Shown: positions 39,727 to 61,594, counted from the first letter of the stretch. The stretch: DNA of 64,000 bases from Burkholderiales bacterium (GCA_040880425.1 JBBDIL010000003.1:9225-73224); one strand, 5' to 3'. Notes: generated from the letters alone by a model not told the origin. Numbers and translations: made by a program.

Positions 39727-39878
39727 CCGCAGAGACACCGAGGCGCGGAGATAAAGAGAACAGAAAGCGATTGGCAAGCCATGCGAGTGCTTTGGGCATT
39801 GATGACCAAGACAACCGTTTCCTGCTGCCTCGGTCTTCGTGCCGGATACGCCTCCCGTGCTTGACTGTACCTCTGCGG
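39727..39878. repeat. intergenic inverted-repeat element, copy 1 (between the nrdD large fragment and the B12-rSAM gene)
   Basis: CCGCAGAG (39727)/CTCTGCGG (39871) and CCGAGGC (39738)/GCCTCGG (39827); shares 'TCTTCGTGCC' and a 'GAC(C)AAG' core with copy 3. Confidence 0.5.
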
Positions 39879-39897
39879 TAAATGAAGGATTTTTTTT

Positions 39898-41760
39898 ATG
39901 AAACTGTTGTTGATCAACCCGAAATACCCGGAAAGCTTCTGGAGCTTCAAGTGGGCTGTGAAGGAGGTTCTGCCGCGCAAGCGTGCGGTGAATCCGCCGC
40001 TCGGCCTTGCGACGCTGGCGGCACTGAGCCCGACGGGCTGGGATGTCACCATCGTCGACGAGAACGTGGAATCGATCCTGCTTGCGCCGGATGCCGATCT
40101 GGTGGGTGTGTGCGGCATGGGAGTGCAATTCCCGAGGCAGACGGAGCTGCTCGCCTTCTATAGAGAGGCGGGCTATCCGACCGTCGCAGGAGGCAGCTTT
40201 GCCTCGCTCTGCCCGGAACGCTACGTGCCGCTGGCCGACAGTGTGGTTGCGGGAGAAGCCGAGTACATCTGGAAGCGGTTCTGTGCTGACTTCGAGACCG
40301 GCCGGGCGCAGCCGCTCTACCGCGAAACCGGAACGGTTTCGCTGTCCGATTCCCCGGTGCCGCGTTTCGACCTGCTCAAAATCGGGAAATACACGACGGC
40401 GACCTTGCAGTTCTCACGCGGATGCCCGTACATGTGCGAGTTCTGCGACATCATTGTCATGTTCGGCCGCAAGCCGCGGCACAAGAGTGTCGAGCAGGTC
40501 GGTCGCGAGCTTGACGCATTGCGCGCGACCGGTGCGCGCAATGCATTCTTCGTCGATGACAATCTGATCGGCCATCGCGCGGCGGCAAAAGAGCTGCTGC
40601 GCTACCTGGCGGAGTACCAGCGGCAACACGGTTACCCGTTCAATTTCGGTACGGAAGTGTCGCTCAACCTTGCGCAGGACAAGGAACTGCTTGAGCTGTT
40701 CCGGGCGGCGGGGTTCTCCTGGGTATTCGTGGGCATCGAATCTTCCGACCCGGAGGCGCTGAAGCAGACGCGCAAGACGCAGAATACGCACGAAGACGTA
40801 CTGACTTCGGTGCGCCGCATCTATGCACACGATATCGACGTGCTGGGCGGTTTCATCGTCGGCTTCGATTCGGACACCGAGGCAACCTTCGGACACCAGG
40901 AACGCTTTATCCTGGATTCCGGCGTGCAGGCGGCGATGGTCGGTCTGCTGACCGCGCTGCCGAAGACGCCCTTGTACCAGCGGCTCGAAAAGGAAGGCAG
41001 GTTGCGTCCGGACGTCGCCGGAACGGACAACACCAAGCCGGCGACCAACGTCGAACCAAAGCACATGTCCTACGAGGCGATGGTGGCAGGCTACGAGACC
41101 ATGTACCGGCGGCTCACCAGACCCGCGGCGATAGCGGAACGCATCCGCAACAAATTGCGCTACATGCGAGCGCCGGTCTACCAGGGCGAGTATTCGACCG
41201 TGGATCGTATCGGCATCATCTGGCGGCTGCTGACGAAGGGGATCCTGCCCGGCGGCCTGCCGCGCATATGGCATTTCCTGTTTTCTTTGCCGCTGTTCGC
41301 GCCGCGCAAGCTGCCGGTGGCGATCGTGGACTGGATTGCGGGTCTGTCCATGCGCGATTACGTGCAGCGGCATTTCCCGATTGCACCGAGCGATGCCGGC
41401 AGGGCTCAGCAACTGTTCGAGGCATTGCTGCAGGGTGCCCGCCGTCACGGTGCAGCTGTCAGAGTGTCGTTGTCGTTGCGTACGGTGGCGCCTTCAGTGT
41501 CGATCAGCCTGCGCGGTGGTCTGCCGGGTGCGTTCTTCCGGCGTGCGGCGCGTAAACTGGATCGCCTGCTTTCCAGAACGCAGGCCAGCGTCACGCTGCG
41601 TATCGATGCATTGCGTGAGTCCGAACTGCCCCACCTTCATCGCCTGCTCGAACGTCTCGCCCGGCATGGCGACCGCATTTCCGTGATCGTCAGCAAGCGC
41701 CTGCGGGGTGTGGTGAAAATCGATTCGTCGGTATTCCGGCTCGTGCTCGCGCGAGAGTAA
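39898..41760 (+). CDS. B12-binding-domain radical SAM protein (DUF4070-type C-terminus)
   Basis: N-terminal B12-binding-like domain (LLLINPKYPE...), 'SRGCPYMCEFCDI' CxxxCxxC; lies between the two nrdD pieces. Confidence 0.8.
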   Translation: MKLLLINPKYPESFWSFKWAVKEVLPRKRAVNPPLGLATLAALSPTGWDVTIVDENVESILLAPDADLVGVCGMGVQFPRQTELLAFYREAGYPTVAGGSFASLCPERYVPLADSVVAGEAEYIWKRFCADFETGRAQPLYRETGTVSLSDSPVPRFDLLKIGKYTTATLQFSRGCPYMCEFCDIIVMFGRKPRHKSVEQVGRELDALRATGARNAFFVDDNLIGHRAAAKELLRYLAEYQRQHGYPFNFGTEVSLNLAQDKELLELFRAAGFSWVFVGIESSDPEALKQTRKTQNTHEDVLTSVRRIYAHDIDVLGGFIVGFDSDTEATFGHQERFILDSGVQAAMVGLLTALPKTPLYQRLEKEGRLRPDVAGTDNTKPATNVEPKHMSYEAMVAGYETMYRRLTRPAAIAERIRNKLRYMRAPVYQGEYSTVDRIGIIWRLLTKGILPGGLPRIWHFLFSLPLFAPRKLPVAIVDWIAGLSMRDYVQRHFPIAPSDAGRAQQLFEALLQGARRHGAAVRVSLSLRTVAPSVSISLRGGLPGAFFRRAARKLDRLLSRTQASVTLRIDALRESELPHLHRLLERLARHGDRISVIVSKRLRGVVKIDSSVFRLVLARE

Positions 41761-41778
41761 AGCAGGAAGCAGAGGCGC

Positions 41779-41914
41779 AAAACACGAAGGCACGAAGAAA
41801 GACAAACCCGGAAGAGAAGCCCAAAGCAATGGCCGCAAACACAGAGTCCGACAAGACTTCTACGCCCTTGGGTCTCCGGGGTCATGTCGGTGTTCCTGGT
41901 GTTTCGCTTCCGGG
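41779..41914. repeat. intergenic inverted-repeat element, copy 2 (between the B12-rSAM gene and the NrdD glycyl-radical ORF)
   Basis: 19 nt 'AAACACGAAGGCACGAAGA' identical to the copy 3 left arm; 'CAGAGTCCGACAAG' and 'GTGTTTCGCT' also shared with copy 3. Confidence 0.6.
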
Positions 41915-41941
41915 AGGCGCGTTTTTTTGTTGAAGGAGGAG

Positions 41942-42127
41942 ATGATGACAGTACGGACTCAAACAACCCAAACGCAAATCAGGCTGCGCGACGAGGAGAG
42001 GCAGCGATGCGAGGTCTGGACGCGGGTGATGGGGTATCACCGGCCGGTGGCATCGTTCAACATCGGCAAACAGGGCGAGCACCGCGAGCGAAGGTTCTTC
42101 GATGAGTCATGCGCGAGCCTGTCCTGA
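41942..42127 (+). CDS. stand-alone glycyl-radical C-terminal piece of NrdD (61 aa from ATG 41942)
   Basis: 'CEVWTRVMGYHRPVASFNIGKQGEHRERRFF' is the class III RNR glycyl-radical motif; GAAGGAGGAG immediately upstream of ATGATG 41942; different frame from the large fragment. Confidence 0.7.
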   Translation: MMTVRTQTTQTQIRLRDEERQRCEVWTRVMGYHRPVASFNIGKQGEHRERRFFDESCASLS

Positions 42128-42860
42128 AACGGCAAGCCGTATGCGCGCGTGCCGGTCATCCGTCGACGTTTTTCGCGTCGGCGGGTTCGTGCCGTTCTCC
42201 ACGGTCGACTTTCCCGGCAAACTCGCCGCGGTTGTGTTCTGTCAGGGCTGCCCGTGGCGCTGTTCCTATTGCCACAATACGCACCTTCAGTCCCGGCGGG
42301 CACAGACGCCCTACGCCTGGCGCGATCTGCTTGCGCAACTGTCGGCCCGCCGTGGAATGCTCGATGCAGTGGTGTTCAGTGGCGGCGAACCCACTGCACA
42401 GGTTTCGCTGCCGCGTGCCGCCGCGCACGTGCACGGCGCCGGCTTCCGCGTCGGTCTGCATACCGCGGGCGTCTATCCGGATCGTCTGCAGCAGACGCTA
42501 CCTTTGCTGGACTGGGTAGGCATCGACATCAAGACGGTTCCGATGGAGTACGCCTCGCTCACCGGGGCAGGCAACGCCGCCGGCCGCGCGTGGGAGAGCC
42601 TGCGGTTGATCCTCTCCAGCGGGGTCGACTACGAAGTGCGCACCACCGTGCACCCCGATCTGGTCACGGCACGCCACCTTCGCAGGCTCGCGCTCGGGCT
42701 TGCACATTTCGGCGTCCGCCGTTATGCGTTGCAGGCCTTCCGGCCGCAGGGCTGCGACGATGGCCAGCTGGCGCGCTCGGTGGCGCCGGACTATCTGACC
42801 CCGCGCCTCGGCAGGGAGATTGGCTCGCTGTTCGAGCATTTCGAAATACGAGGTGGCTGA
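42102..42860 (+). CDS. nrdG: anaerobic ribonucleotide reductase activating protein (radical SAM)
   Basis: 'VGGFVPFSTVDFPGKLAAVVFCQGCPWRCSYCHN'; alternative start ATG 42141. Confidence 0.85.
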   Translation: MSHARACPETASRMRACRSSVDVFRVGGFVPFSTVDFPGKLAAVVFCQGCPWRCSYCHNTHLQSRRAQTPYAWRDLLAQLSARRGMLDAVVFSGGEPTAQVSLPRAAAHVHGAGFRVGLHTAGVYPDRLQQTLPLLDWVGIDIKTVPMEYASLTGAGNAAGRAWESLRLILSSGVDYEVRTTVHPDLVTARHLRRLALGLAHFGVRRYALQAFRPQGCDDGQLARSVAPDYLTPRLGREIGSLFEHFEIRGG

Positions 42861-43173
42861 CCGAGTGATCGTTGCGTGTCCTTGATCCGGATTAAGCAAT
42901 CGACCGCCGGGCCGAGCCAAGACATAAAACAATGAAAATCACCAGGCCGTTTTCGGTAGCCCGCGTAGCGCAAGTTACGCAAAGGCGCCTGATCCCATGG
43001 AACGTTGCCGCAACATAATTCGCACAGGTAGCAGACCGCGGCGGCGAAGTCCTCCAATCGTCTTCACAGCTTCAACGTCGCGTTCCCGCTGCCCCGGCGA
43101 TGTCGGGAACGGATGGCGCCCGCCGCTGCCGGTGACCTTTGCCATCGTTCACATTGCTGCAAGGAGAAACTCG

Positions 43174-43251
43174 ATGAGACAGTGGACAGATCCGGCATAC
43201 AGCGACATTCGCCTTGGCTTCGAAGTCACCGCGTACGTCTACGTTCGCTGA
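43174..43251 (+). CDS. pqqA: PQQ precursor peptide PqqA (25 aa)
   Basis: MRQWTDPAYSDIRLGFEVTAYVYVR: W..P, E-x3-Y (EVTAY) signature; AAGGAGA 6 nt upstream. Confidence 0.85.
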   Translation: MRQWTDPAYSDIRLGFEVTAYVYVR

Positions 43252-43321
43252 GGTTGAGCGGGGGCTTGTGCCAGAGCGTACGGCGCAAGCGCCCCGTGCT
43301 CGCCATACCGAGACTCAGCCC

Positions 43322-43615
43322 ATGAGCGTCCAAAATCATTTCGAGACGGATGATCTTCCAACTCTTAATCCGTTGTTCATGTTCCGCTGGGAAGAAACCC
43401 AGCACGCGTATGTGCTGCTGTACCCGGAGGGCGTGGTCAAGCTCAACGATACGGCGGGGGAGATCCTGAAACGGTGTACCGGAAAGCTGACGGTGGCGGA
43501 ACTGACTGCCGAACTTGGGCGGCTGTTCGACGCAGACCCACAGCAGCTCGAAGGCAGCGTCCTGAAATTTCTGGAGGTGTCGCATGCCAAAGGATGGATC
43601 CGTCGTCAGGCTTGA
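43322..43615 (+). CDS. pqqD: PQQ biosynthesis peptide chaperone PqqD
   Basis: 'FMFRWEETQHAYVLLYPEGVVKLNDTAGEILKRC...TVAELTAEL' PqqD pattern; start at the internal Met of track ORF 43214..43615. Confidence 0.8.
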   Translation: MSVQNHFETDDLPTLNPLFMFRWEETQHAYVLLYPEGVVKLNDTAGEILKRCTGKLTVAELTAELGRLFDADPQQLEGSVLKFLEVSHAKGWIRRQA

Positions 43616-44726
43616 CGGCGAAGGCAAGCCGCTGTGGCTTGTTCTGGAGCTGACTTACCGCTGCCCGCTTGCCTGCCCGTGGTGCAGCAATCCGGTCGAC
43701 TACGCGCGCTACGAGAACGAGCTTTCCACCGAGGAGTGGAAGCGCGTGCTGCGAGAAGGGCGCGAACTCGGCGCACTGCAGCTCGGATTCACCGGTGGGG
43801 AGCCGATGCTGCGGAAGGATCTGGAGGAGCTGGTCGGCGAGGCGCACCGGCTTGGCTACTACACCAACCTGATCACCTCGGGTATCGGCTTGAACGAGCC
43901 GCGGCTGATTGCTCTCAAGAACGCGGGACTCAACCAGATCCAGCTGTCCATCCAGTCGAGCCGCAGGGACATGACCGACGCACTGGTCGGAACCCGTGCG
44001 TTCGATCACAAGCTGAAGGTCGCGCGGCTGATCAAAGCATACGGCTTTCCGATGGTGCTGAACGTTCCCGTGTTCCGGCAGAACGTCGAGCTCGCGGCGG
44101 AAATACTGGATATGGCAGAGGACATCGGCACGGACTATCTCGAATTCGCCAACATCCAGTACTACAACTGGGCCATGGTCAACCGCGACGAACTGTTGCC
44201 CTCGCTGCAGCAGTTGCAGAGTGCCGAAGCGGTGGTGCAGAAGGCGCGCAAGCGGCTCGAGGGCAGGATGACGATTTACTTCGTGATCCCGGACTATTAC
44301 GAACAGCGGCCCAAGGCCTGTATGAACGGATGGGGTTCGATTCATCTGACCATCGCGCCCGATGGTGCTGCCCTTCCGTGCCAGGAGGCGCGGGTCATCG
44401 AGGAACTCGCCTTTCCTACGGTTCGCGAGAAAAGCCTTGCCTGGCTATGGAACGAATCCCCAGCCTTTCGCAAATTCCGCGGCAACGACTGGATGAAGGA
44501 GCCGTGCCGCAGTTGCAGCGAGAACGAGAAAGATTACGGCGGCTGCCGCTGTCAGGCGCTGCTACTGACCGGTGATGCTGCCAATACCGACCCTGCATGC
44601 GCGAAATCGCCGCATCATCATGTGATCGTCGAGGCGGTGGCGCGCGCCAATGACCCTGCTCGCGCGCAGCAGCCGCTGGTGATGCGCCGCGTCGGAACAA
44701 GCGAAGTCGATATCGCGCTCGGATGA
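43584..44726 (+). CDS. pqqE: PQQ biosynthesis radical SAM/SPASM enzyme PqqE
   Basis: 'PLWLVLELTYRCPLACPWCSNP' and C-terminal SPASM Cys (CRSCSENEKDYGGCRCQA). Confidence 0.85.
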   Translation: MPKDGSVVRLDGEGKPLWLVLELTYRCPLACPWCSNPVDYARYENELSTEEWKRVLREGRELGALQLGFTGGEPMLRKDLEELVGEAHRLGYYTNLITSGIGLNEPRLIALKNAGLNQIQLSIQSSRRDMTDALVGTRAFDHKLKVARLIKAYGFPMVLNVPVFRQNVELAAEILDMAEDIGTDYLEFANIQYYNWAMVNRDELLPSLQQLQSAEAVVQKARKRLEGRMTIYFVIPDYYEQRPKACMNGWGSIHLTIAPDGAALPCQEARVIEELAFPTVREKSLAWLWNESPAFRKFRGNDWMKEPCRSCSENEKDYGGCRCQALLLTGDAANTDPACAKSPHHHVIVEAVARANDPARAQQPLVMRRVGTSEVDIALG

Positions 44727-44857
44727 AGAACCCGTTCGACTCAGCCTTCGGCACCATCGTGCTCGGCGTCGGCCTTACTGTCGGGCTCTGGTTGCTCGCA
44801 CGCTGGTGCGTCGCCGGATTCTGATGCCTGTGATCGACGCGTGAAGGAACTGAGCCA

Positions 44858-45016
44858 CGGAGGACACGGAAAAGAAACGAGAAAGGCGATGAGATCTGGA
44901 ACCACTTGCGCCGGGCTGGCACTCCGAATAGGCAGGGCTGTTCGAGTGCACAAGACGCTGCAATGCCCGCGCCGGAATATCCGGTGTCGAATCTTCGACT
45001 CTCGCCGTGTCCTCCG
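44858..45016. repeat. intergenic inverted-repeat element, copy 4 (after pqqE)
   Basis: 12-bp termini CGGAGGACACGG (44858..44869) / CCGTGTCCTCCG (45005..45016); left arm resembles copy 5 (GAGGACACGG). Confidence 0.5.
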
Positions 45017-45028
45017 GGGTGAGATTAT

Positions 45029-45538
45029 TTGATGGAAACGCAAACGCTCGATCTTCTGCTGCGCTGGCTGCATTTCTTCGCCGGGATCGTGTGGATCGGC
45101 CACAACTACTCCACGCTGATCCAGCGCCCGGGCTACTTGCCGCTGACCGCGGCCGAGCTGGTGAACGAGGGCAGCCCGCGCTTCATGGGCCTGCTCGCCC
45201 GCGAGCACGGCATCTTCCGCTGGGCCGCGGTGGTGGCTTGGACGACGGGCATGTTGATGCTGTGGCAGCGCGGCTGGCTGGTTGACGCGATTACTCTCTC
45301 GGGGTACGCGGCGGTCATTGGTCTGGGCACGTGGATCGGCACTTTCATGATGCTCAACGTATGGTTCGTGCTCTGGCCGCACCAGAAGAAGGTGCTCGGT
45401 TTTGTGGCGGCGCCGGTTGATGAGCGCCTGCGCGCGTCGCGTGTGACCTTTCTGTCTGCGCGGGTCAACACGATGCTGTCGATCCCGCTGCTGTTCTTCA
45501 TGGCCTCTGCGCAGCACGGCGCTTTCCTGTATGGCTGA
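45029..45538 (+). CDS. four-TM membrane protein (urate-hydroxylase PuuD N-terminal-like?)
   Basis: 'LRWLHFFAGIVWIGHNY', 'NVWFVLWPHQKK' resemble that family from memory; function unknown. Confidence 0.45.
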   Translation: MMETQTLDLLLRWLHFFAGIVWIGHNYSTLIQRPGYLPLTAAELVNEGSPRFMGLLAREHGIFRWAAVVAWTTGMLMLWQRGWLVDAITLSGYAAVIGLGTWIGTFMMLNVWFVLWPHQKKVLGFVAAPVDERLRASRVTFLSARVNTMLSIPLLFFMASAQHGAFLYG

Positions 45539-46631
45539 CGGCGCAGTCCTGGAAACGCGGCGCGGCGGCTGCGTTCGGTCAGTCGGCGGTACCGTGAGTT
45601 TCTCAGCGTCGGGCGGACATCTGCCGAACGAGGTGCTCGCACAGGCGATACGCGAGCTTTCGGAGTGGCGCGGTACCGGACAGGGTGTCCTGGAGCTGCC
45701 GTTTACCGGGCCTGCATTCAAAGATCTGCAAGCCGGAGCAATGAGCTCTCTCCGCGCGCTGTTACGCTTGCCCGAGGGTTATCGCGTACTGTTCATGCAG
45801 GGCGGGGCTTCTACACAGTTTTCACTGGTGCCGATGAACCTGCTTCGCGGGAAAGAGACGGCTTCTTATACCGACACCGGCTATTGGTCGAAGCGCGCGA
45901 TTGCGGAGGCGCTGCGCTATTGCAGAATCGAGCTTCTGCCACCGCATGGCCTACCGGCTACGCCGGGCACCGCGTACCTGCATGTGACTTCGAACGAAAC
46001 CGCTGACGGCTGGCAGTATCGTGAGTTTCCGGATACCGGTGGCCTGCCGCTGGTTGCAGACATGACTTCGGATTTTCTGACGCGGCCGATAGATGTCTCG
46101 CGTTTCGGCCTGATCTATGCCAGCGCGCAGAAAAACATCGGCGTGGCCGGGTTGACCGTGGTTATCGTCCGCGAAGACCTCCTGGGCGGCGCGCATATGC
46201 TCACGCCATCTGCCTTCGACTACCGGATGCAGGCGCAAAGCGACTCGCTTTACAACACACCGCCCGTGTTCGCAGTGCATGTCGCCGGACTGGTGTTCGC
46301 ATGGCTGTTGGCCCAGGGTGGGCTGGAGTCGATGCAGGCTGCAGCCAGACGCAAGAGTTTATGCCTGTACGATGTGATCGACCGATCGGACGGATTTTAT
46401 CGATGCCAGGTTGCGCCGGAAGCCAGATCCTGCGTGAGTGTCTGCTTCAGGCTCGCCGGCACTGCGTTGACTCGCGCTTTTCTGGGCGAGGCGGAATCGG
46501 AGGGTTTCCTGCATCTCGCCGGTCATTCGCGAGTTGGGGGCATTCGCGCGAGCCTGTACAACGCGGTGAGTGAAGAGGCTGCGACGGCACTCGCGGAATT
46601 CATGCAGGATTTCGCAAACAGGCGCGGTTGA
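45531..46631 (+). CDS. phosphoserine aminotransferase-like class V aminotransferase
   Basis: 'FSASGGHLPNEVL', 'VLFMQGGASTQF', 'YASAQKNIGVAGLTVVIV' (PLP Lys); likely start GTG 45594. Confidence 0.75.
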   Translation: MADGAVLETRRGGCVRSVGGTVSFSASGGHLPNEVLAQAIRELSEWRGTGQGVLELPFTGPAFKDLQAGAMSSLRALLRLPEGYRVLFMQGGASTQFSLVPMNLLRGKETASYTDTGYWSKRAIAEALRYCRIELLPPHGLPATPGTAYLHVTSNETADGWQYREFPDTGGLPLVADMTSDFLTRPIDVSRFGLIYASAQKNIGVAGLTVVIVREDLLGGAHMLTPSAFDYRMQAQSDSLYNTPPVFAVHVAGLVFAWLLAQGGLESMQAAARRKSLCLYDVIDRSDGFYRCQVAPEARSCVSVCFRLAGTALTRAFLGEAESEGFLHLAGHSRVGGIRASLYNAVSEEAATALAEFMQDFANRRG

Positions 46632-48045: not shown

Positions 48046-48126
48046 ATTGCTACCCTCCGCATGATGCAGTGCATCAAGAATGAATACACCCAATTGCCAA
48101 CCTAGTCCCCGGCGCCGCAATGGGCC

Positions 48127-48140
48127 TTGACCCACATCAA
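48127..48140. promoter_or_regulatory. FNR/Dnr-like box TTGACCCACATCAA upstream of the c2-like cytochrome gene
   Basis: One mismatch; centred about 88 bp upstream of ATG 48045. Confidence 0.45.
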
Positions 48141-48271
48141 GCCGGTTTGCCGCATCCTTCGAGCCAGGCATCAAACCGGGAGTGGATTGCGTCTGATTCT
48201 GTCAGATGGGTCGGATCGCAGGCAAGCGCCGATACGCAATGGCGACACAAAGGTGCGTCCAGCGTTGTTGG

Positions 48272-49846
48272 TCAGTGACTCGTGCCGCGGGAACGGGTGA
48301 TCTTGTTGTACACGTTGTATTTGCCCGATGGTTTGTTCATCGGCAGGCGTTTGACTTCCTCCAGCGTATTCGCATCGTAAATCACCAGCGCGCCTTCCAG
48401 GTCCCAGACGCTTGCGAGCGCGTAGCGTCCGTCGCGGGTGAATTCGATATGCGCCGCGGTCTTTCCAGGCGACGGTGTCAGGTTTCGCACGACCTCCAGG
48501 GCGAGCTTGTCGATGACCTGCAGCGTATCCCGCGTCGGGCCGTTCATGCCATCTACCCATGCATAGCGGCTCTCCTCGTGACTGCGCAGGAAGAAGCCCG
48601 GTCCCGCGGTCTCGATCTGTTTTACGGTCTCCCAGGTTTGCATGTCGATTACGGTGACCAAGCCATGCGCGAGGTTCGGCGTGGCCATCACTCGTCGGCC
48701 GTTGAGTTCCCAGTTGATGCCTGAGCCGAGGTGCGGCAGTCCGGTAAGTGCAACATCCGCGATCTTTCGGCGAACGTCGAGATTGACCACCTGGCCTTTC
48801 CCGCCGCCTCGCTCCGCGCCGACTACATAAGCGTAGCTTGGGTCAAAGAAGAAGTCGTCCAGAATCGCATCGAGCGGAATCCGTCGGATGGGAAAAGGGC
48901 CTCGCGCGGCAACGCCCTCCTTCAGCCGGTAGTCGTGTACCAGACCTTCGTAGACCGGCTCCGCGCCGACGCGGTAGGGAATCTCCCAGATTTCCGGCAC
49001 GTCCTTCAGTGCCGCGACGAAGCTGCCGCGCGGCGCGGCATCGTAAACCGCGGACACACGCGAGGAAGTGCCGGAGAGGTCGGCAACCGGAATGATCTTC
49101 ACCGGTGCGAGGTCGACCGCATCGAGCACTACCAGCGTGTGCGGCAGGTAATTGGCCACCATCGCGTAGCGCCCGTCGGAAGACAATGCCAGGTTTCGGG
49201 TGTTGATCCCGGCGCGAACCTCCGCCACGGTCTTGAGGTTCCAGATGTCGAATTTGGAGATCCAGCCGTCGCGCGAAGCGAAATAGACGTAGCGTCCATC
49301 GGGCGAGAACTTCGGGCCGCCGTGGAGCGCATAGTGTGTGCGAATACGCGCGAGCGGCTCGAAGCGGTCGCCGTCGAGAATGGTTGCATGATGGTCTCCG
49401 GTTTCCACCACGACAAACAGGTTGAGCGGATCGGCGTCGAACGCCGGCTGGTCTGGCAGGCTCCCGGACGCGTGATGCACGCGGCGGGAATCGGCGATTT
49501 GCGGCAGATCCCACTGCGGCACCCGTTCCAACGGGCGATATATATAGTCCACGAGTGCCTGCGTATCCTGCGCGGAAAGCTGGTTGGAGAAGCCGGGCAT
49601 CTGCGTCGCGATCCGCCCGTCCGCAATAATGCGTGCGGCCTCGCCCGGTTTTACACGCGAAAGATTCTCCGGCAGCAGAGCTGGGCCCATCCCGCCAAGC
49701 CGGTCAGCCCCGTGACACGACGCGCAGTGCTGGCGGTACAGCTCGTCGGGCTCGGCCGCCAGGGTAGTCTGCGCAACGGCCAGGAGGATTAAACACGGTA
49801 GAAACGAAACACGAAGGCACGAAGACACGAAGAAAAGAAGAATCAC
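48272..49846 (-). CDS. nirN: cytochrome cd1-like dihydro-haem d1 dehydrogenase NirN
   Basis: 'CASCHG' c-domain plus cd1 beta-propeller (homologous to NirS/NirF here); start set at GTG 49846 (or 49828), giving a signal peptide ...FLPCLILLAVAQTTLA/AEP; the long 838-aa track ORF is not credible. Confidence 0.8.
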   Translation of the reverse strand: MILLFFVSSCLRVSFLPCLILLAVAQTTLAAEPDELYRQHCASCHGADRLGGMGPALLPENLSRVKPGEAARIIADGRIATQMPGFSNQLSAQDTQALVDYIYRPLERVPQWDLPQIADSRRVHHASGSLPDQPAFDADPLNLFVVVETGDHHATILDGDRFEPLARIRTHYALHGGPKFSPDGRYVYFASRDGWISKFDIWNLKTVAEVRAGINTRNLALSSDGRYAMVANYLPHTLVVLDAVDLAPVKIIPVADLSGTSSRVSAVYDAAPRGSFVAALKDVPEIWEIPYRVGAEPVYEGLVHDYRLKEGVAARGPFPIRRIPLDAILDDFFFDPSYAYVVGAERGGGKGQVVNLDVRRKIADVALTGLPHLGSGINWELNGRRVMATPNLAHGLVTVIDMQTWETVKQIETAGPGFFLRSHEESRYAWVDGMNGPTRDTLQVIDKLALEVVRNLTPSPGKTAAHIEFTRDGRYALASVWDLEGALVIYDANTLEEVKRLPMNKPSGKYNVYNKITRSRGTSH

Positions 49847-49990
49847 CGGGAATCGCGCATGGCGTACGTGAGTACGTGGCCAATTCGCGGCGTTGACCGG
49901 AACAGCCGTTGCGAATACGGGGAAAAGTGCGTCGTCCCAAAGAAACAGTCCGACAAGTATTCCTTCGTGTCTTCGTGCCTTCGTGTTTCG
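49801..49990. repeat. intergenic inverted-repeat element, copy 3 (between nirJ and nirN)
   Basis: Perfect 28-bp inverted repeat CGAAACACGAAGGCACGAAGACACGAAG (49805..49832) / reverse complement (49963..49990) around 130 bp. Confidence 0.75.
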
Positions 49991-50049
49991 CTCTTTCATG
50001 CGGTTCTCGCATTTCACGTTTTCTCGGGTCTTCGTGTACCGCATCTGCG

Positions 50050-51261
50050 TCATTCCGGTAATACCGTCGCGGTGCGCTGCCGGCGGGAGTAGGGCGTTAC
50101 GCTCAGGCGTTCGCGTGAGCTCTCGACGCCGATCTCTTCGTCTTCCAGATAGCAGCCGGGGTCCTCCTCCCAGGGGTCGCCGGTAAGCTGCCATGCGCGG
50201 GTGCGCGTGTTTCCGCCGCAAACGTCGAGAAAACCGCACTCGCGGCAGCGGCCTTTCACCGGTCGCGGCCGCCGCCTGAGTCCCGCCATGAGCGAGTCGG
50301 TCGCATCGGACCAGATTTCTGAAAAGCGACGTTCGCGCACATTGCCGAGCGTGTATTCCCACCACATCGTGTCCGGGTGCACGTTGCCGAGATTGTCGAT
50401 ATTGGCGATACCGACGCCGGTGGCGTTGCCACCCCATTGGCGCAGCCGCGCGCGCAGCGCGGGTTCGGCTTGGGGATGGTGGCGTTTGACCCACAGCAGC
50501 AGCCAGGCCGCGTCGGCGTCGTTGTTGCCGGTGACGAACTCGGTCGGCAGACCTCGCTCGAGGTGATCCCACGCCGCCCGGATGAGCAGGTCGATCGCCC
50601 ATCGCGCGGAGAGATGCATGGCATCGCGCGCACGGTTGACGTTGCCGCGGCCCGCGTAATTCAGGTGTGACAGGTAGAACTTGTCCACGCGTTCCCGCTC
50701 TACCAGCGCCAGCAGCTGCGGCAGGTGCGGTGCGTTGTCGCCTGTCAGCGTAAAGCGCACGCCCGCCTTGATGCCGGCATCCCGGCACAACCGTAAGCCT
50801 TCGAGCGCGCCGTCGAAGGCGCCCGCCTTGCGGCGAAAGCGGTCGTGCGTATCGCCGATGCCATCCAGGCTGATTCCCACATAATCGAAGCCGATTGCCC
50901 TGATCGCGTTCAGGTTATGCTGGTCGATCAGAGTGCCGTTGGTGGACAGCCCGACGTAAAAACCCAGGCTCTTTGCGCGCCCGGCGATCGTGAAAATGTC
51001 CGGGTGCAGCAATGGTTCCCCGCCGGACAGAATCAGCACCTGTACGCCGAAACGCCTGAGGTCATCCATCACGCCGAAGATTTCCGGCGTTGTCAGCTCG
51101 CCCGCAAAGTCGTGGTCCGTCGAGATCGAATAACAATGCTGGCACGCCAGGTTGCAGCGCCGGATCAAGTTCCAGATCACCACCGGCCCGGAAGGCGCGC
51201 GTTGCGACGAGGGCGCTGGCTGCCCGCGGATTCCCTTCAGATACTGTGTCAATCGGAACAT
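50050..51261 (-). CDS. nirJ: haem d1 biosynthesis radical SAM protein NirJ
   Basis: 'VIWNLIRRCNLACQHCYS' CxxxCxxC; C-terminal auxiliary Cys cluster (CRECGFLDVCGG). Confidence 0.9.
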   Translation of the reverse strand: MFRLTQYLKGIRGQPAPSSQRAPSGPVVIWNLIRRCNLACQHCYSISTDHDFAGELTTPEIFGVMDDLRRFGVQVLILSGGEPLLHPDIFTIAGRAKSLGFYVGLSTNGTLIDQHNLNAIRAIGFDYVGISLDGIGDTHDRFRRKAGAFDGALEGLRLCRDAGIKAGVRFTLTGDNAPHLPQLLALVERERVDKFYLSHLNYAGRGNVNRARDAMHLSARWAIDLLIRAAWDHLERGLPTEFVTGNNDADAAWLLLWVKRHHPQAEPALRARLRQWGGNATGVGIANIDNLGNVHPDTMWWEYTLGNVRERRFSEIWSDATDSLMAGLRRRPRPVKGRCRECGFLDVCGGNTRTRAWQLTGDPWEEDPGCYLEDEEIGVESSRERLSVTPYSRRQRTATVLPE

Positions 51262-51926: not shown

Positions 51927-51930
51927 GTGG

Positions 51931-54523: not shown

Positions 54524-54890
54524 CTGCCAGGCCTTTCAACAGAACTTCCACCAGCCAGGCCGCTTCGCTTTCGTTCAAAAACGCGCTCCATCCGGGCATC
54601 GCGCTGCCGGGCCGGCCATGGAGGATCACGTGCCGAAGATTCTCTGCAGACCTGCTGCGCAGATCGGCGGCAAGCAACGGCGGCCCCAGACCGCCTGCGA
54701 GGCTCAGACCGTGACAGGAGCCGCAGTCATGACGCAACAGATGGAGCAGCTCCATGCCTCGCGCAGGTTCTGGTGCTGCAATTTCCGTGGCGCGAGCGTC
54801 CGCCAATACAAGAATTGCGATTGCTGCCAGGGCGGCTGTCAGTTTCTCCGTACGCAGTCGCATGTGTTTCGCTGGTTTGATGGTCGTCAC
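54513..54890 (-). CDS. nirC: cytochrome c55X NirC
   Basis: 'CGSCHG', 'GRPGSAMPGW'; start uncertain (GTG 54890 or ATG 54863). Confidence 0.75.
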   Translation of the reverse strand: MTTIKPAKHMRLRTEKLTAALAAIAILVLADARATEIAAPEPARGMELLHLLRHDCGSCHGLSLAGGLGPPLLAADLRSRSAENLRHVILHGRPGSAMPGWSAFLNESEAAWLVEVLLKGLADED

Positions 54891-54934
54891 ATCGAGTGTG
54901 CAGAATGATTCTGCTTTGTTTGTGAGCCAACCTG

Positions 54935-54948
54935 TTGACGAAGGTCAA
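54935..54948. promoter_or_regulatory. FNR/Dnr-like box TTGACGAAGGTCAA upstream of nirC
   Basis: Palindromic TTGAC-N4-GTCAA just downstream of the nirM terminator. Confidence 0.5.
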
Positions 54949-54965
54949 GCCGCGCTTTCGTGCAG

Positions 54966-54995
54966 ACAAAAAAGCGGGGGACGCGAAGTCCCCCA
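54966..54995 (-). terminator. rho-independent terminator after nirM
   Basis: Minus strand reads GGGGGAC-TTCGC-GTCCCCC followed by GCTTTTTTG. Confidence 0.7.
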
Positions 54996-55083
54996 ATAAT
55001 GGTGGAGTGAACGATATGGAGAACGTCCTCTTCTATATACCTCTCCTTTCTCTCCCGTACAGGGAGCATTGCGAATGCAGTAC

Positions 55084-55413
55084 CTACCGGGCCAGGACCC
55101 AGCTCACCAGGATGGTGAGTTCTGCATCGCTTATTCGTCCCTTGTGCGGCGGCATCGGGATCGCACCCCAGACGCCGCTCCCGCCATCTCGCACTTTCTT
55201 TTCCAGGTTCGCCTGTGCACCGGCGTCGCCGTTGTACTTGGCGGCGATTTCCTGGTACGCCGGTCCGACCAATTTCTTGTCGAGCGCATGACAGGCCGAG
55301 CAGCCTTTGTCCTTGTTAAGTTTCTCCGCGTCGGCCGCATGCGCAATGACAGCATTGAAGAACACGGCGGCGGCTAACGCTGCGATCAGGATGGCCAAAA
55401 TGTCGGATTTCAT
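55084..55413 (-). CDS. nirM: cytochrome c551/c552 (NirM)
   Basis: 'CSACHALDKKLVGPAYQEIAAKY...GVWGAIPMPP' class ID cytochrome c. Confidence 0.85.
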   Translation of the reverse strand: MKSDILAILIAALAAAVFFNAVIAHAADAEKLNKDKGCSACHALDKKLVGPAYQEIAAKYNGDAGAQANLEKKVRDGGSGVWGAIPMPPHKGRISDAELTILVSWVLAR

Positions 55414-55425
55414 CGCGCGTGCTCC

Positions 55426-57247
<1,822 letters not shown>

Positions 57248-57297
57248 TTTTTCGGGAATGGCCCTTCGGTTAGAGTGGCCTTCGAGGAGAAGAACAA

Positions 57298-58722
57298 ATG
57301 GATTACTTCCCGGCGTTTTTCGATATCAGGAGCAGGCCTTGCCTGGTCGTAGGCGGAGGCGAGGTCGCGAGCCGCAAGGCCGCTCTGCTGCAAAAGGCGG
57401 GTGCACGCGTGACCATGGTCTCACCGGAACTAAGCCCGTCGTCCACGCGCATGGTTCAAAGCGGCGACGTGGTGCACATACCGGCACGTTTCACGGCCGA
57501 ACACCTGCGCGGTGTGGTTCTGGTGATTGCCGCTACCAACGATGCTGCGGTAAACGAAGCGGTCTTCAGGGCCGCGAGCGAGTTGCATCTGCCGGTGAAC
57601 GTAGTGGATGCGCCGCACTTGTGTTCATTCATCGTGCCGTCGATCGTCGACCGCTCGCCTGTCGTCATCGCGATAGGCAGCAGTGGCAAGGCGCCGGTGC
57701 TGGCGCGGCAGTTGCGCACGCGCCTTGAGGGTCTGATCCCGCAGTCAGTGGGACGCCTGGCGGTGCTTGCCGGTGCTTTTCGCGAGCATGCGAAGAAACG
57801 CTTCCCGCAGGTCGAGCAAAGGCGCAGATTCTGGGAAGGCATTCTCGATGGGCCGATCGCGGAAATGGTGTACTCGGGCCAGGAGGCGGCAGCGCGCCAC
57901 GCGCTACTGGACGTGCTGAACCGCGGCGGCACCGGTTCGCGGAGCCCCGGCGAGGTTTATCTAATTGGCGCCGGGCCCGGCAATCCAGACCTGCTGACTT
58001 TCCGCGCATTGCGGCTCATGCAGAAGGCGGATGTCGTGGTGTATGACCATCTGGTTGGCGAAGGTATCCTCGAACTCGTCCGGCGCGACGCGCAGCTCGT
58101 CTATGCGGGCAAAGAGAGCAACAATCACGCGCTGCCGCAGCCGGACATCAATGCTTTACTGGTGCGCATGGCGAAGGAAGGCAAATGCGTGGTGCGGCTG
58201 AAAGGCGGAGACCCGTTTATCTTTGGTCGCGGCGGCGAGGAGATGGAAGCGCTGGTGGAACACGACATACGATTTGAAGTAGTGCCCGGGGTCACGGCTG
58301 CATGCGGGGTGTCCTGTTACGCGGGCATCCCGCTTACGCACCGCGACTACGCGCAGTCCGTGGTTTTCGTTACCGGGCATCTCAGGGACGGCAGCGTGAA
58401 TCTCGATTTTGCGGCGCTCGCGCGCCCGGCGCAGACCGTGGTGATCTACATGGGGGTCGGCGGCCTGGCGCAGATCTGCGAACAATTGATCGTGCATGGC
58501 CAGCGGGCGGACATGCCCGCCGCGGTGGTCGAGCGCGGCGCAACCGACCGGCAGCGTGTCGTGACCGCCACGCTCGCGACACTACCCGCGCGCGCAGCAC
58601 AGGCCTGCGTGAAACCTCCGGCACTGGTGATCGTAGGGGAGGTTGTCGCACTGCATGACCGGCTTGCCTGGTACGGCAACGCGTCAGCCGATGCCGGACG
58701 GGAGGTGGCATCCGCAGTCTGA
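57298..58722 (+). CDS. cysG: sirohaem synthase (precorrin-2 dehydrogenase/ferrochelatase + uroporphyrinogen-III C-methyltransferase)
   Basis: N-terminal 'VVGGGEVASRKA' Rossmann; C-terminal 'VYLIGAGPGNPDLLT', 'VVRLKGGDPFIFGRGGEE'. Confidence 0.9.
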   Translation: MDYFPAFFDIRSRPCLVVGGGEVASRKAALLQKAGARVTMVSPELSPSSTRMVQSGDVVHIPARFTAEHLRGVVLVIAATNDAAVNEAVFRAASELHLPVNVVDAPHLCSFIVPSIVDRSPVVIAIGSSGKAPVLARQLRTRLEGLIPQSVGRLAVLAGAFREHAKKRFPQVEQRRRFWEGILDGPIAEMVYSGQEAAARHALLDVLNRGGTGSRSPGEVYLIGAGPGNPDLLTFRALRLMQKADVVVYDHLVGEGILELVRRDAQLVYAGKESNNHALPQPDINALLVRMAKEGKCVVRLKGGDPFIFGRGGEEMEALVEHDIRFEVVPGVTAACGVSCYAGIPLTHRDYAQSVVFVTGHLRDGSVNLDFAALARPAQTVVIYMGVGGLAQICEQLIVHGQRADMPAAVVERGATDRQRVVTATLATLPARAAQACVKPPALVIVGEVVALHDRLAWYGNASADAGREVASAV

Positions 58723-58826
58723 TCTGCTCGTGACGCTGCGGCGACCTGTTTCCCGCGCCGGAATAAAGCCCCATAATCCGCGTCTGGCGAAGCCAATGCT
58801 CCTGAAGAAGGGGCGCGAGCAGACGC

Positions 58827-59519
58827 GTGCCGACCGTTCCAATAAAAACCCAGGCCTTTCTCAGCAACCTGCCGCTGTTCCGCGAGCTCGCGCCCGAGGA
58901 GATCGAGTTGATCGCGGCCGGTACCCGCGAAGTTCGGATCAGACGCGGCGATATGCTGTTTCAGAAGGGCGACCCGTGCCGCGGCTTTCATATCGTGGTC
59001 TATGGGCAGATCAAACTGCTGTTCATAACGCCCCAGGGTGATGAGAAGGTCATCGAGATCATGGGCCCCGGCCAGAGCTTCGGCGAGGCGGTGATGTTCA
59101 TGGAAAAGCCCTATGTGGTGTCGTCGCAGGCGCTCGCGGACTCGCTTTTGCTGCACGTATCCAGGGATGTCGTGTTCGAGGGGATCGATCGTGACGCCAA
59201 GTTCGCGCGCCGGATGATCGCGGGGCTGAGCCGGCGCCTGCATCATCTGGTCAGCGACGTGGAGGCATACTCTCTGCGCTCCGCCACGCAGCGCGTGATT
59301 GGGTATCTGCTGCGCCCGGAGCACGATCACGACGACGAGGGCAAGGGCACTGTGGTTACGCTGCCGGCGACAAAGTCGGTTATCGCGTCCCGCCTCAACA
59401 TTACGCCGGAGCACTTTTCACGCATCCTCCACGAATTGGGCGAAAAGCATCTGATCGAGGTAGACGGCCGCAATGTCCGGATTCTCGATACCGATCGGTT
59501 ACGTGTTTTCGAGGGCTGA
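58827..59519 (+). CDS. Crp/Fnr-family regulator, Dnr/NnrR type (no N-terminal Cys cluster)
   Basis: cNMP-like domain; HTH 'IASRLNITPEHFSRILHEL' with the E--SR recognition motif that reads TTGAT half-sites. Confidence 0.8.
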   Translation: MPTVPIKTQAFLSNLPLFRELAPEEIELIAAGTREVRIRRGDMLFQKGDPCRGFHIVVYGQIKLLFITPQGDEKVIEIMGPGQSFGEAVMFMEKPYVVSSQALADSLLLHVSRDVVFEGIDRDAKFARRMIAGLSRRLHHLVSDVEAYSLRSATQRVIGYLLRPEHDHDDEGKGTVVTLPATKSVIASRLNITPEHFSRILHELGEKHLIEVDGRNVRILDTDRLRVFEG

Positions 59520-59537
59520 AGCCCGTATCTGCAAGGC

Positions 59538-59551
59538 TTGATCTGTATCAG
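59538..59551. promoter_or_regulatory. FNR/Dnr-like box TTGATCTGTATCAG upstream of the NMO-family gene
   Basis: One mismatch; centred about 69 bp upstream of ATG 59614. Confidence 0.4.
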
Positions 59552-59613
59552 GGACGCCTTCCCTGGTAGCGCGTACCGTGTGCGGCCTGCGATTCAAAGA
59601 GGAACAGGGCGAA

Positions 59614-60774
59614 ATGTCGATGCCCGAATTGCCGTGCTGGGGGCTGAGAGGACGCCAGCTCAAACCCGTGGTCCAGGGCGGAATGGGAATCGGCGTGTCG
59701 GCTCATCGGCTTGCAGGCAGCGTTGCGAAGGCGGGTGCGATGGGGACGGTCGCAAGCATAGACCTGCGGCACCACCATCCGGATCTGATGGAACGATGCA
59801 AGGGTACGCGCGACAGGGCCGCGATCGACCGCGTGAATCTGGAGGCGCTCGATCGTGAAGTCCGCTTGGCGCTGGCGTTGTCCGAAGGGCGGGGCGCGAT
59901 CGCTGTAAACGTCATGAAGGCAGTCAGCGCGCATGCGGATTATGTTCGCCAAGCTTGCGAGAGCGGCGCGCACGCGATCGTAATGGGTGCCGGCTTGCCT
60001 TTCGATCTCCCGGACTTGGCCGCCGAACATCCCCACGTCGCATTGGTGCCCATCCTGTCCGATGCGCGGGGCATTCAGATCGTTATCAGGAAATGGATGC
60101 GCAAGAATCGTTTGCCCGACGGCATCGTAATCGAGCATCCGCGATACGCGGCGGGCCATATCGGCGCGACGCGAAGCGAGGAGATCGACGATCCGCGTTT
60201 TGATTTCGCTCGCGTGATGGAAGAAGCGCAGAACATTTTCCGGAATCTCGGCATAGAGCGCGAAGCAATTCCGCTGATTGCGGCGGGCGGCGTGCATACT
60301 CACGAGCAGGTGCGTGCACTACTGGCAATGGGTGCTTCCGCGGTGCAGATTGGCACGGCGTTCGCCGTGACGGAGGAAGGTGATGCACACCCGAATTTCA
60401 AGAGGGTGCTGGCAGAGGCTCGGCCCGAGGATATCGTCACCTTTATCAGCGTCGCCGGACTACAGGCCCGCGGGGTGTTGACCCCGTGGCTCGTAAACTA
60501 TCTGCGGCGTGAGTCGCGGCTGCAGGCCAATGCCAAGGCTGATCTACGCCGGTGCGTACCCGGATTCCAGTGCCTGACAGCGTGCGGTTTGCGTGACGGA
60601 ATCGCGCGCTTCGGACAATTCTGCATTGAGATGCGGTTGGCCGATGCGCTAAAGGGCGATATTGGCAAAGGCCTGTTCTTTCGCGGATCGGAGAGACTGC
60701 CTTTTGGTACTGCGATCCGCCCGGTGCGCGAATTGATCGACTACTTACTGCACGGGCGCATGCCCGCCCTTTGA
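59614..60774 (+). CDS. nitronate monooxygenase (2-nitropropane dioxygenase-like) family flavoprotein
   Basis: 'VVQGGMGIGVS', 'AGGV'; start at ATG 59614. Confidence 0.7.
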   Translation: MSMPELPCWGLRGRQLKPVVQGGMGIGVSAHRLAGSVAKAGAMGTVASIDLRHHHPDLMERCKGTRDRAAIDRVNLEALDREVRLALALSEGRGAIAVNVMKAVSAHADYVRQACESGAHAIVMGAGLPFDLPDLAAEHPHVALVPILSDARGIQIVIRKWMRKNRLPDGIVIEHPRYAAGHIGATRSEEIDDPRFDFARVMEEAQNIFRNLGIEREAIPLIAAGGVHTHEQVRALLAMGASAVQIGTAFAVTEEGDAHPNFKRVLAEARPEDIVTFISVAGLQARGVLTPWLVNYLRRESRLQANAKADLRRCVPGFQCLTACGLRDGIARFGQFCIEMRLADALKGDIGKGLFFRGSERLPFGTAIRPVRELIDYLLHGRMPAL

Positions 60775-61005
60775 CCGCGGGCCATCGTCCAGCAAGTATC
60801 TTTCGGAATCCTCCGTAAGTTCAGCGGCACCTTCATCCTCGACAGGCGGGTGCCTTTCTGCTGCGTTCGCACTCAAGACAGGCGGCAAAGTCACGCAAAG
60901 TGGTAATCTTCTCGCAGGTTCCTGTGCCGTCTGCCGCGGGCGTTCATCACGTCGAGTATTGCTGGATTCCTTCCGCAGATGGTTTCGTATCCAGTGGAGG
61001 AGTAA

Positions 61006-61431
61006 ATGACAAAACGAGCATTCATCAATCCCGAACGCGTGAGACGCATCGGCGCGTTCTCACATGCCGTGGCTTCGACAGGGGGCGTCACCGTGCATGT
61101 AAGCGGGCAAGTGGCGGTGGACGCGGACGGCAAGGTCATTGCGCCGGGCGACATGAAAGCGCAGGCCACGGCCGTGTTCGACAACCTCGGCCACATCCTC
61201 AAGGAGGCCGGCGGAAGCTACGATGACGTAGTCAAGCTGACGCACTACGTGGTCGACCTGAAACCGGAGCACAGGCCGGTCATCACCGAGATCCGCAACC
61301 GCCACGTCAATCAGACCAACCCCCCGGCCAGCACCATGATCGGCGTGCCGGCATTGGTCATGGACGGACTGGTGATCGAGGTCGAGGTGATCGCGGTAAT
61401 CGACGAATCCCGCGCGAAGCATTTGTTTTGA
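61006..61431 (+). CDS. RidA/YjgF family protein
   Basis: 'GAFSHAVASTGGVTVHVSGQVAVD...', C-terminal 'IEVEVIAV'. Confidence 0.8.
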   Translation: MTKRAFINPERVRRIGAFSHAVASTGGVTVHVSGQVAVDADGKVIAPGDMKAQATAVFDNLGHILKEAGGSYDDVVKLTHYVVDLKPEHRPVITEIRNRHVNQTNPPASTMIGVPALVMDGLVIEVEVIAVIDESRAKHLF

Positions 61432-61457
61432 CGACGCATCGAGTGAACCACTGAGGA

Positions 61458-61594
61458 CACGGCGGAAAACCGGAAAACGAAGCAGCCAGCAGGACACCGG
61501 GGGCACCAGGAAAAGCGAGACGAACCTTCGAGGAAGTTCTTCTCGACCTTAGCGCTCCTTTGCGTACCGATTCTATTTCCGGTTTTCCTCCGTG
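61458..61594. repeat. intergenic inverted-repeat element, copy 5 (after the RidA gene)
   Basis: 19-bp termini CACGGCGGAAAACCGGAAA (61458..61476) / TTTCCGGTTTTCCTCCGTG (61576..61594), 18/19 complementary. Confidence 0.6.

Follow-up and report, generated by a model that had tools for sequence, protein, structure and literature searches.

The window analyzed here is a stretch of 64,000 nt from a Burkholderiales bacterium (C3:9225-73224 of an assembly of 3.86 Mb with 63% G+C, 98.7% complete). Our subject is a family of foldback elements in its intergenic gaps, in which a purine-rich arm is followed by a loop and a pyrimidine-rich arm. A first-pass annotation of the window had claimed five such repeat loci, and all five are present. 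They all lie between protein-coding genes, and their neighbors include nrdD, the genes of a B12-binding radical-SAM and an rSAM-SPASM protein, RidA and an SDR gene. The five copies are as follows.

39727..39878, no strand assigned: copy 1, a decayed foldback with three CRCNRAG units
41779..41914, no strand assigned: copy 2, a decayed A-type element
44855..45019, no strand assigned: copy 3, a B-type foldback with a unique loop
49803..49992, no strand assigned: copy 4, an intact A2-type foldback, the best of the five, with a unique 124-nt loop
61446..61596, no strand assigned: copy 5, a composite B-type foldback between the RidA and SDR genes

In all five copies the purine arm stands 5′ of the pyrimidine arm, and each copy carries units of the type CRCNRAG (CGCAGAG/CACCGAG/CGCGGAG, CACGAAG and CACGGAG). 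The stems measure 12-33 bp. Copy 4 consists of AACGAAA(CACGAAGN)3AAA at 49803-49835 and its complement at 49960-49992, that is, arms of 31-33 nt matching at 94-97%, with a perfect core of 28 nt (49805-49832 / 49963-49990). The perfect 28-bp terminal repeat of CACGAAG units which the first-pass annotation ascribed to copy 3 is real and is this one, located in the fourth copy. Likewise, the shared termini GAGGACACGG exist, and it is the third and fifth copies that carry them and not the fourth and fifth. The arms of copy 3 are CCACGGAGGACACGG (purine, 44855-44869) and CCGTGTCCTCCG (pyrimidine, 45005-45016). Copy 5 has an outer stem at 61458-61476 / 61576-61594 (CACGGCGGAAAACCGGAAA); its inner CACCAAG and CTTTGCG arms are decayed, with a remnant at 61548-61564. 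In copy 2 the purine arm CACGAAGGCACGAAG (41783-41797) is matched by a degenerate pyrimidine arm, GGTGTTCCTGGTGTTTCGCT, at 41889-41908, and the 19-nt identity of this copy with the CACGAAG copy, now copy 4, was recovered as AAACACGAAGGCACGAAGA. The purine arm of copy 1, CCGCAGAG-ACACCGAG-GCGCGGAG (39727-39750), starts 12 nt past the nrdD stop, and of its pyrimidine arm we find only remnants at 39828-39846 and 39870-39878.

Each copy was folded as RNA and scored as a z value against 100 dinucleotide shuffles. Copy 4 (z = -6.9, minimum free energy (MFE) -86.4 kcal/mol), copy 3 (z = -5.6, MFE -72.3 kcal/mol) and copy 5 (z = -4.5) fold strongly. The values are weak for copy 1 (-2.0) and copy 2 (-1.2), and we therefore regard these two as half-elements with decayed right arms.

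The first-pass annotation placed each element just after a stop codon. This is approximately true, with gaps of 10-30 nt, except that copy 3 does not directly follow the rSAM-SPASM gene but the stop of an open reading frame (ORF) of 33 amino acids (44723-44824). The B12-binding radical-SAM gene (39898-41760) has copy 1 on one side and copy 2 on the other; the body of nrdD extends over 37672-39714, and a start codon lies beyond copy 2 at 41942. We considered whether the two copies form a single cassette around the radical-SAM gene and rejected this, as their arm word types differ and each pairs locally. In the related genome G003 the gene order around this stretch is identical and every gap holds an element. 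Copy 4 lies between convergent genes, an upstream ORF with no Pfam match (48731-49792) and a radical-SAM gene on the opposite strand (50050-51261).

A genome-wide family of tandem-word hairpins

The elements are not unique local hairpins but belong to a dispersed family with hundreds of further copies in the genome. In the 3.86 Mb we counted 163 occurrences of CACGAAGGCACGAAG and 57 of GGAGGACACGG, and neither is found in reversed-sequence controls. Arms of the CACGAAG type with at least two units amount to about 290 on the purine and about 290 on the pyrimidine side; they combine into 167 pairs whose loops measure 6-180 nt. Copies 3 and 5 as well as the 57 GGAGGACACGG sites pair at distances of 87-151 nt. 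With the general word C[AG]C-N-[AG]AG we obtained 231 hairpin clusters, about 31 kb in total. Of these, 223 (97%) are intergenic according to our own crude gene caller, with 147 in co-directional, 47 in convergent and 23 in divergent gaps. The median start is about 27 nt past the upstream stop. The elements occupy about 7% of the intergenic gaps of the genome, some of these within operons for respiration and biosynthesis. A role tied to the nir, nrd and pqq operons in particular is not supported, with some 231 elements spread over the genome in every context of gene orientation.

The order of the arms is nearly fixed. Within 400 nt a purine arm is followed by a pyrimidine arm 233 times, while the reverse order is found four times. 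An unbiased scan for inverted repeats (arms of at least 18 nt, at least 85% complementary) returned 178 purine-first, seven pyrimidine-first and 96 mixed repeats, and 145 of the 178 purine-first repeats contain at least two CRCNRAG units. The same scan also yields two minor word families, GGACTGAG and GGATGAAG; the latter forms purine-first hairpins at C6:145280-145583 and six other loci, one of which has perfect 42-nt arms.

All arms are tandem arrays of the 7-nt word C[AG]C-N-[AG]AG with spacers of 1-3 nt, such that units recur every 8-10 bp, and arm length varies in whole units. The sequence 3′ of the pyrimidine arm is TTTCGCT(C/T)TT and would be U-rich in RNA. The two subfamilies suspected in the first-pass annotation merge, since single composites contain CACGAAG-type and CACGGAGGA-type arms one inside the other and both follow one common unit grammar; in the composites at C1:11130-11300 and C27:230788-230950, for instance, the CACGAAG and CGCAAAG arms lie within CACGGAGGA arms. 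The proposed internal motifs did not hold up. GTGTTTCGCT is merely the end of an arm, present in 143 copies genome-wide. As for CAG(AG)TCCGACAAG, the sequence CAGTCCGACAAG is judged to be a chance occurrence because it is found only three times in the genome, and the 41 occurrences of TCCGACAAG are also at about the chance level.

Terminal inverted repeats, many intergenic copies and the lack of coding capacity (none of the copies encodes a transposase, as already stated in the first-pass annotation) are what one expects of ordinary miniature inverted-repeat transposable elements (MITEs), or of repetitive extragenic palindromic (REP) sequences and their paired form REPIN, moved in trans by a transposase or by the REP-associated tyrosine transposase (RAYT). 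After removal of the arms, however, 126 of 128 loops are singletons when all loops are compared with one another by BLAST. Conservation is restricted to the arms and whole elements are not copied, and for this reason the elements are not MITEs. Moreover, arm length differs by whole units, the comparison of filled with empty sites shows no target duplication, and we found neither a linked transposase nor a related insertion sequence. A search for PF01797 (Y1 transposase) gave no match in this 98.7% complete genome, whereas control genomes did give matches; as the genome lacks a Y1 transposase, REP/RAYT is rejected too. What stands of the earlier comparison is that the mosaic make-up resembles that of bacterial interspersed mosaic elements (BIMEs). 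Movement in trans as MITEs or REPINs thus appears highly improbable.

A nuclease gene inside the same arms

The genome contains exactly three genes for GxxExxY proteins (PF13366/TIGR04256), and all three lie within arms of the element word types.

C31:14754-15229: GxxExxY cassette with arms of CACGAAGG units
C31:171781-172249: GxxExxY cassette with arms of CGCAAAG units
C33:27763-28305: GxxExxY cassette with arms of CAC[TCA]AAG units; the gene is at 27881-28225

This association is not confined to one genome. We collected 80 GxxExxY loci from other organisms, 76 of them with both flanks, covering Proteobacteria, Bacteroidota, Acidobacteriota, Planctomycetota, Cyanobacteria, Chloroflexota, Spirochaetota, Verrucomicrobiota and a metagenome-assembled genome labelled Methanosarcinales. 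Inverted arms (score of at least 30) flank the gene in 62 of the 76 loci as opposed to 18 of 225 randomly paired upstream and downstream flanks, and the upstream arm is purine-rich in 50 of the 62. From these arms 151 units were recovered: CACAGAG (36), CGCAGAG (31), CGCAAAG (24), CACGAAG (10), CACAAAG (10), CACCAAG (9), CACGGAG (7) and similar words. Most spacers measure 1-3 nt, and TTAAC or TTCAC often forms the outer flank. Because units and spacers agree across phyla, we conclude that the word grammar of the window copies is the general grammar of GxxExxY cassettes. The Nostoc and Rivularia genes in the sample carry CGCAAAG/CGCAGAG arms. Our searches of the literature for GxxExxY, PF13366, TIGR04256 and related terms returned no paper treating an association of gene and arms.

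The GxxExxY proteins of many phyla are about 45-60% identical to the protein of this genome. Across 55 sequences from many phyla the residues E39, D75, E85 and K87 do not vary, and the AlphaFold2 (AF2) model (pLDDT 93.9) has a PD-(D/E)XK fold. Judged from conservation and model, the nuclease looks active. A sequence search of the PDB gave no match at E ≤ 1, and Foldseek returned only weak PD-(D/E)XK neighbors, namely Cas4 SSO0001, lambda exonuclease and a splicing endonuclease, all with E > 0.001. No close relative with a solved structure was thus found.

A second gene shows a matching architecture with another word. The single PF05635 gene of the genome (23S rRNA intervening sequence protein, Avd-like; C19:13488-13802, minus strand) is located between the end of a LemA-like gene and the next gene and is enclosed by a purine arm of GGACTGAG words and its complement. 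The orthologous PF05635 cassette of G002 has arms of the word TCCGAGT, and about nine gene-less GGACTGAG hairpins are found elsewhere in the genome. In G008 the arrays flanking the PF05635 gene (C132:751-4026) are of an ATCAC type and direct, not inverted, with an ordinary GGACTCAG hairpin just upstream.

Comparison with related genomes

We compared 41 related genomes, among them a congener (G001) and a member of a sister genus (G007). Many short-read contigs of G001 (C207, C11, C69, C46, C297) end at or beside repeats, and the repeat counts of fragmented relatives are therefore lower bounds. The exact 15-mer CACGAAGGCACGAAG is present in 24 copies in G001 and in 14-28 copies in two other genera; 36 other genomes of the family and order lack it. 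Arrays of three CRCNRAG units amount to 574 in this genome, to 285 in G001 and to 325 in G008; in three small-genome genera there are none. All nine of the 41 genomes that bear PF13366 have at least 22 three-unit arrays, while 27 of the 32 without it have at most four.

At individual sites the position of the element is kept and its sequence is not. In G003 and G008 elements likewise occupy the gaps of copies 1-4, with other arm types. At site 1 the G003 gap holds a better-preserved CGCGGAGGA/CGCAGAGGA hairpin. At site 2 the CACGAAG arms of this genome correspond to a CACGGAGGA-type hairpin in G003, and at site 3 the situation is reversed, with CACGGAGGA-type arms here and CACGAAG-type arms in G003 and G008. 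Site 4 is filled by a CACCAAG-type hairpin in G008, by a degenerate half in G003 and by nothing in G007. Copy 5 is an exception and aligns over its full length with its G001 ortholog at about 83% identity, on par with the flanking genes; in the ortholog the inner CACCAAG and CTTTGCG arms are intact, and its pyrimidine arm contains an additional insert of 111 nt.

The same picture emerges from a 40-kb stretch of C33 with 12 element sites. For 11 of them the flanks lie on one G001 contig, the spacer is kept in all 11, and at least nine of the 11 G001 sites have a recognizable foldback, in most cases with other arms and with a loop that does not align. The cassettes have been inherited vertically for a long time, and the arm words have been replaced or homogenized within the genome much faster than the flanking genes change. 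Word usage differs accordingly between congeners: here we count 310 CACGAAG dimers versus 64 CACCAAG dimers, and in G001 there are 365 CACCAAG dimers. The old cassette C33:27763-28305 appears to record such a replacement. Its purine arm consists of CACTAAG/CACCAAG, while its pyrimidine arm ends in CTTCGTG units so that the arms mismatch, and the orthologs in relatives have CACCAAG on both arms. The mismatched CTTCGTG arm argues for overwriting by the dominant word of the genome and not for compensatory change within the hairpin. The gene in this cassette has positional orthologs in G001 (with an in-frame TAG), G002, G003 (broken), G007 (72% identical) and G012.

Insertion and loss of the gene can also be followed. 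In G007 trpG and trpD abut, and a composite element of 140-210 nt separates them here and in G001; G007 also lacks the element at a second site, which is filled here. Cassettes were therefore inserted at gene boundaries, in short gaps, at some past time. At C33:32622-32751, G007 has an intact GxxExxY gene with CGCAAAG/CGCAGAG arms, G001 retains the C-terminal half and this genome has a bare hairpin of 130 nt. Here the gene was lost by internal deletion and the arms were kept as a bare hairpin.

RNA-level tests

The REP stem-loops in Escherichia coli operons are the model for a reading of such hairpins as host-selected RNA elements, which would stabilize the upstream mRNA, set processing sites or attenuate read-through. 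Several observations fit: the stems are very stable, the elements start shortly after a stop codon with 147 of 223 in co-directional gaps, the pyrimidine arm is followed by the U-rich TTTCGCT(C/T)TT, matching gaps stay occupied across genera, and copy 5 is as similar to its G001 ortholog as the flanking genes are. If the stems were selected as RNA, arm mismatches that form G.U pairs in the mRNA should be preferred. In the 144 elements of co-directional gaps, however, 185 mismatches are G.U in the mRNA versus 168 in the antisense strand (p = 0.39), which gives no strand-specific RNA signature in this G.U-versus-A.C stem test. In addition, copies 1, 2 and 5 are decaying, arm type and loop vary freely at orthologous sites, the elements also sit in convergent (47) and divergent (23) gaps, and two sites, including the coupled trpG-trpD junction, are empty in G007.

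Membership in a known RNA family is rejected by Rfam searches, which gave no match at E ≤ 1 in window positions 36000-64000; a 20-kb stretch with at least nine elements gave just two chance-level matches, both below the gathering threshold. Terminator-like sites were defined by a short G+C-rich stem with a loop of 3-8 nt and a run of T after it. Their number in the region (12) is not enriched over shuffled sequences (8.9 +/- 3.0), and among the copies only the 3′ edge of copy 2 fits such a site, where a small hairpin followed by seven T residues (41905-41928, stem region 41905-41919) overlaps its 3′ end. On balance, we regard selection by the host at the RNA level as unlikely.

Interpretation of the five copies

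The family is real and abundant and is best placed among the known REP-, intervening sequence- and STRR-like intergenic palindromes. We suggest that the five copies of the window are probably gene-less members of the GxxExxY foldback-cassette family, that is, selfish or relic DNA and not control devices of the nrd, nir or pqq genes, their filing as gene-less derivatives resting on one decay series at another site. In its complete form the cassette would be a PD-(D/E)XK gene of about 120-130 codons (GxxExxY, PF13366/TIGR04256) set between a purine-rich 5′ arm and a complementary pyrimidine-rich 3′ arm.

The following steps would account for the observations. The conserved word may be read by the nuclease, the obvious candidate, or by another protein, and recognition of the arms could lead to insertion, to homogenization of the arms or to both. 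The tandem words could let unequal arms pair in several registers, and this may explain why arrays are favored. In the transcript, stems of 20-35 bp could act as processing sites of the RNase III type or as protectors of 3′ ends, by analogy with the intervening sequence in Coxiella 23S rRNA (PMC4990558). Such processing would allow the insert to be tolerated inside operons at little cost.

A number of points weigh against this interpretation. Neither an ORF nor a remnant of a GxxExxY or PF05635 gene was found in the five copies and the roughly 230 gene-less elements by tblastn with the three GxxExxY proteins and the PF05635 protein; the lone weak match among the gene-less elements had E = 0.034. 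The decay series was found at one site only. For the commonest arm type, AGCGAAA(CACGAAGN)3, we found no gene-bearing master in the five genomes examined. The three GxxExxY paralogs are mutually only 47-53% identical, and the gene has therefore not spread recently. Arrays occur despite the lack of a detectable GxxExxY gene in G040 (215), G033 (64), G032 (40; 100% complete) and G019 (19), so that the gene is not needed for their persistence. Neither a target-site duplication nor a mobility event between close strains was seen. The related genomes are few in number and not independent samples, and the activity of the nuclease, its substrate and cleavage by RNase III are points that we infer.

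Similar repeats have been described in other bacteria. In Geobacter metallireducens, 21 pairs of (TCTCCGTS[Y])3 on opposite strands and at variable distance were named class 2 global regulator binding sites; they are found in gaps of operons, proB-proA for instance, and are not the same in sister species (Aklujkar et al. 2009, PMC2700814). The reverse complement of their unit, SACGGAGA, is the CACGGAGGA arm word of copies 3 and 5, and the paired structure is identical. In contrast to our elements, those of Geobacter were described only as nucleotide motifs, without a hairpin or cassette reading or a link to GxxExxY (PMC2700814), and here the dominant word is CACGAAG and the copies are about ten times more numerous. 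In Geobacter the pairs were taken to bind integration host factor (IHF)/HU or an undefined global regulator (PMC2700814), and an explanation of the present family as DNA binding sites of a nucleoid protein or global regulator, be it IHF/HU or another, can appeal to that precedent. It can also appeal to the unit period of 8-10 bp and to the conservation of the unit word across phyla, which speaks for some protein that reads the word. Global regulator sites would, however, not be expected to avoid promoter-type gaps (10% of the elements are in divergent gaps compared to 17% of all gaps), to come as inverted purine-to-pyrimidine pairs at variable distance or to be missing from most related genomes. 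Also, the arms enclose and co-occur with a nuclease gene and not with a regulator. We consider regulator sites quite improbable.

The intervening sequences of the 23S rRNA in Coxiella and Leptospira have a small ORF in the loop of a stem made of terminal repeats of about 28 bp, which is cut by RNase III; they are regarded as selfish and their origin is obscure (PMC4990558). The PF05635 proteins resemble Avd of diversity-generating retroelements (PMC10053308). The PF05635 gene of this genome is found in a comparable purine/pyrimidine foldback, though between protein genes. The five copies of the window differ from the rRNA inserts in that they lie between protein-coding genes and not in a 23S rRNA helix, and the gene linked to CRCNRAG arms encodes a PD-(D/E)XK nuclease and not an Avd-like four-helix protein.

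With the REP/REPIN-RAYT systems and BIMEs the family shares hundreds of short intergenic palindromes, a low-copy gene flanked by the repeats, vertical inheritance, lineage-specific variants and a mosaic of modules. Unlike in REP/RAYT, there is no Y1 (HUH) transposase, the arms are arrays with a variable number of words, the loops are long and unique, and the gene is of the PD-(D/E)XK type. In cyanobacteria, short tandemly repeated repetitive (STRR) sequences with 7-bp repeats fold into hairpins in gaps like that of hupS and hupL, and effects on mRNA stability or translational coupling were suggested (PMC2670836). These intergenic heptamer hairpins are of a similar kind to ours. The published STRR1-3 consensus words differ from the element words found here. 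To our knowledge, STRR sequences have been described only in filamentous cyanobacteria, and without an associated gene.

A wider proposal, which we put forward only tentatively, is that GxxExxY genes and CRCNRAG arms constitute an undescribed mobile or self-maintaining class across many phyla. The nuclease would read the word on hairpin or cruciform DNA and drive both insertion at gene boundaries and rewriting of the arms throughout the genome. The hundreds of gene-less hairpins would be non-autonomous passengers, making the system a PD-(D/E)XK counterpart of RAYT and REPIN. This might also explain the Geobacter sites and, via the PF05635 cassettes, the origin of the rRNA intervening sequences.

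As far as we know, reports of paired tandem-word repeats in the gaps of operons go back decades and treat them as motifs without an explanation; the STRR sequences of cyanobacteria and the global regulator sites of Geobacter are examples. If they are relics and passengers of a conserved nuclease cassette, annotators should not read them as regulatory sites of the neighboring genes. The highly conserved and hardly studied GxxExxY family, with its intact PD-(D/E)XK site, would gain a testable substrate, and the origin of the rRNA intervening sequences would become approachable. A practical effect of the repeats is that they break short-read assemblies, as at the G001 contig ends.

Neighboring sequences

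The 33-amino-acid ORF upstream of copy 3 is hydrophobic (MKNPFDSAFGTIVLGVGLTVGLWLLARWCVAGF) and overlaps the rSAM-SPASM stop by ATGA. Judged by its sequence, it could be a candidate precursor peptide or a small membrane partner.

Two compact repeats accompany the foldbacks. The first, CCTTTGACTTCGGCTYACGTTGA...GCGTCGCGTGTTGTGTGGTTCGCT, is about 100 nt long and present in about 30 copies with 71-94% identity over the full length (for example C33:9942-10056, 23405-23501 and 40430-40544). It always abuts or splits a CACGAAG pyrimidine arm and, unlike the foldbacks, is conserved throughout. The second, GCCGACACGGCGTTGGCGAAGCCATCCGGGGCGGGAGGC..., is about 97 nt long, has no Rfam match and is present in at least 14 full copies, with a tandem triplication in one instance. 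Copies are located at:

C33:29629-29859: GCCGACACGGCGTTGGCGAAGCCATCCGGGGCGGGAGGC... repeat
C3:171835-171929: GCCGACACGGCGTTGGCGAAGCCATCCGGGGCGGGAGGC... repeat
C13:19951-20045: GCCGACACGGCGTTGGCGAAGCCATCCGGGGCGGGAGGC... repeat
C33:33952-34044: GCCGACACGGCGTTGGCGAAGCCATCCGGGGCGGGAGGC... repeat

This repeat inserts inside pyrimidine arms of the CACGGAGGA type, and in G001 a copy of it lies inside the ortholog of window copy 5.

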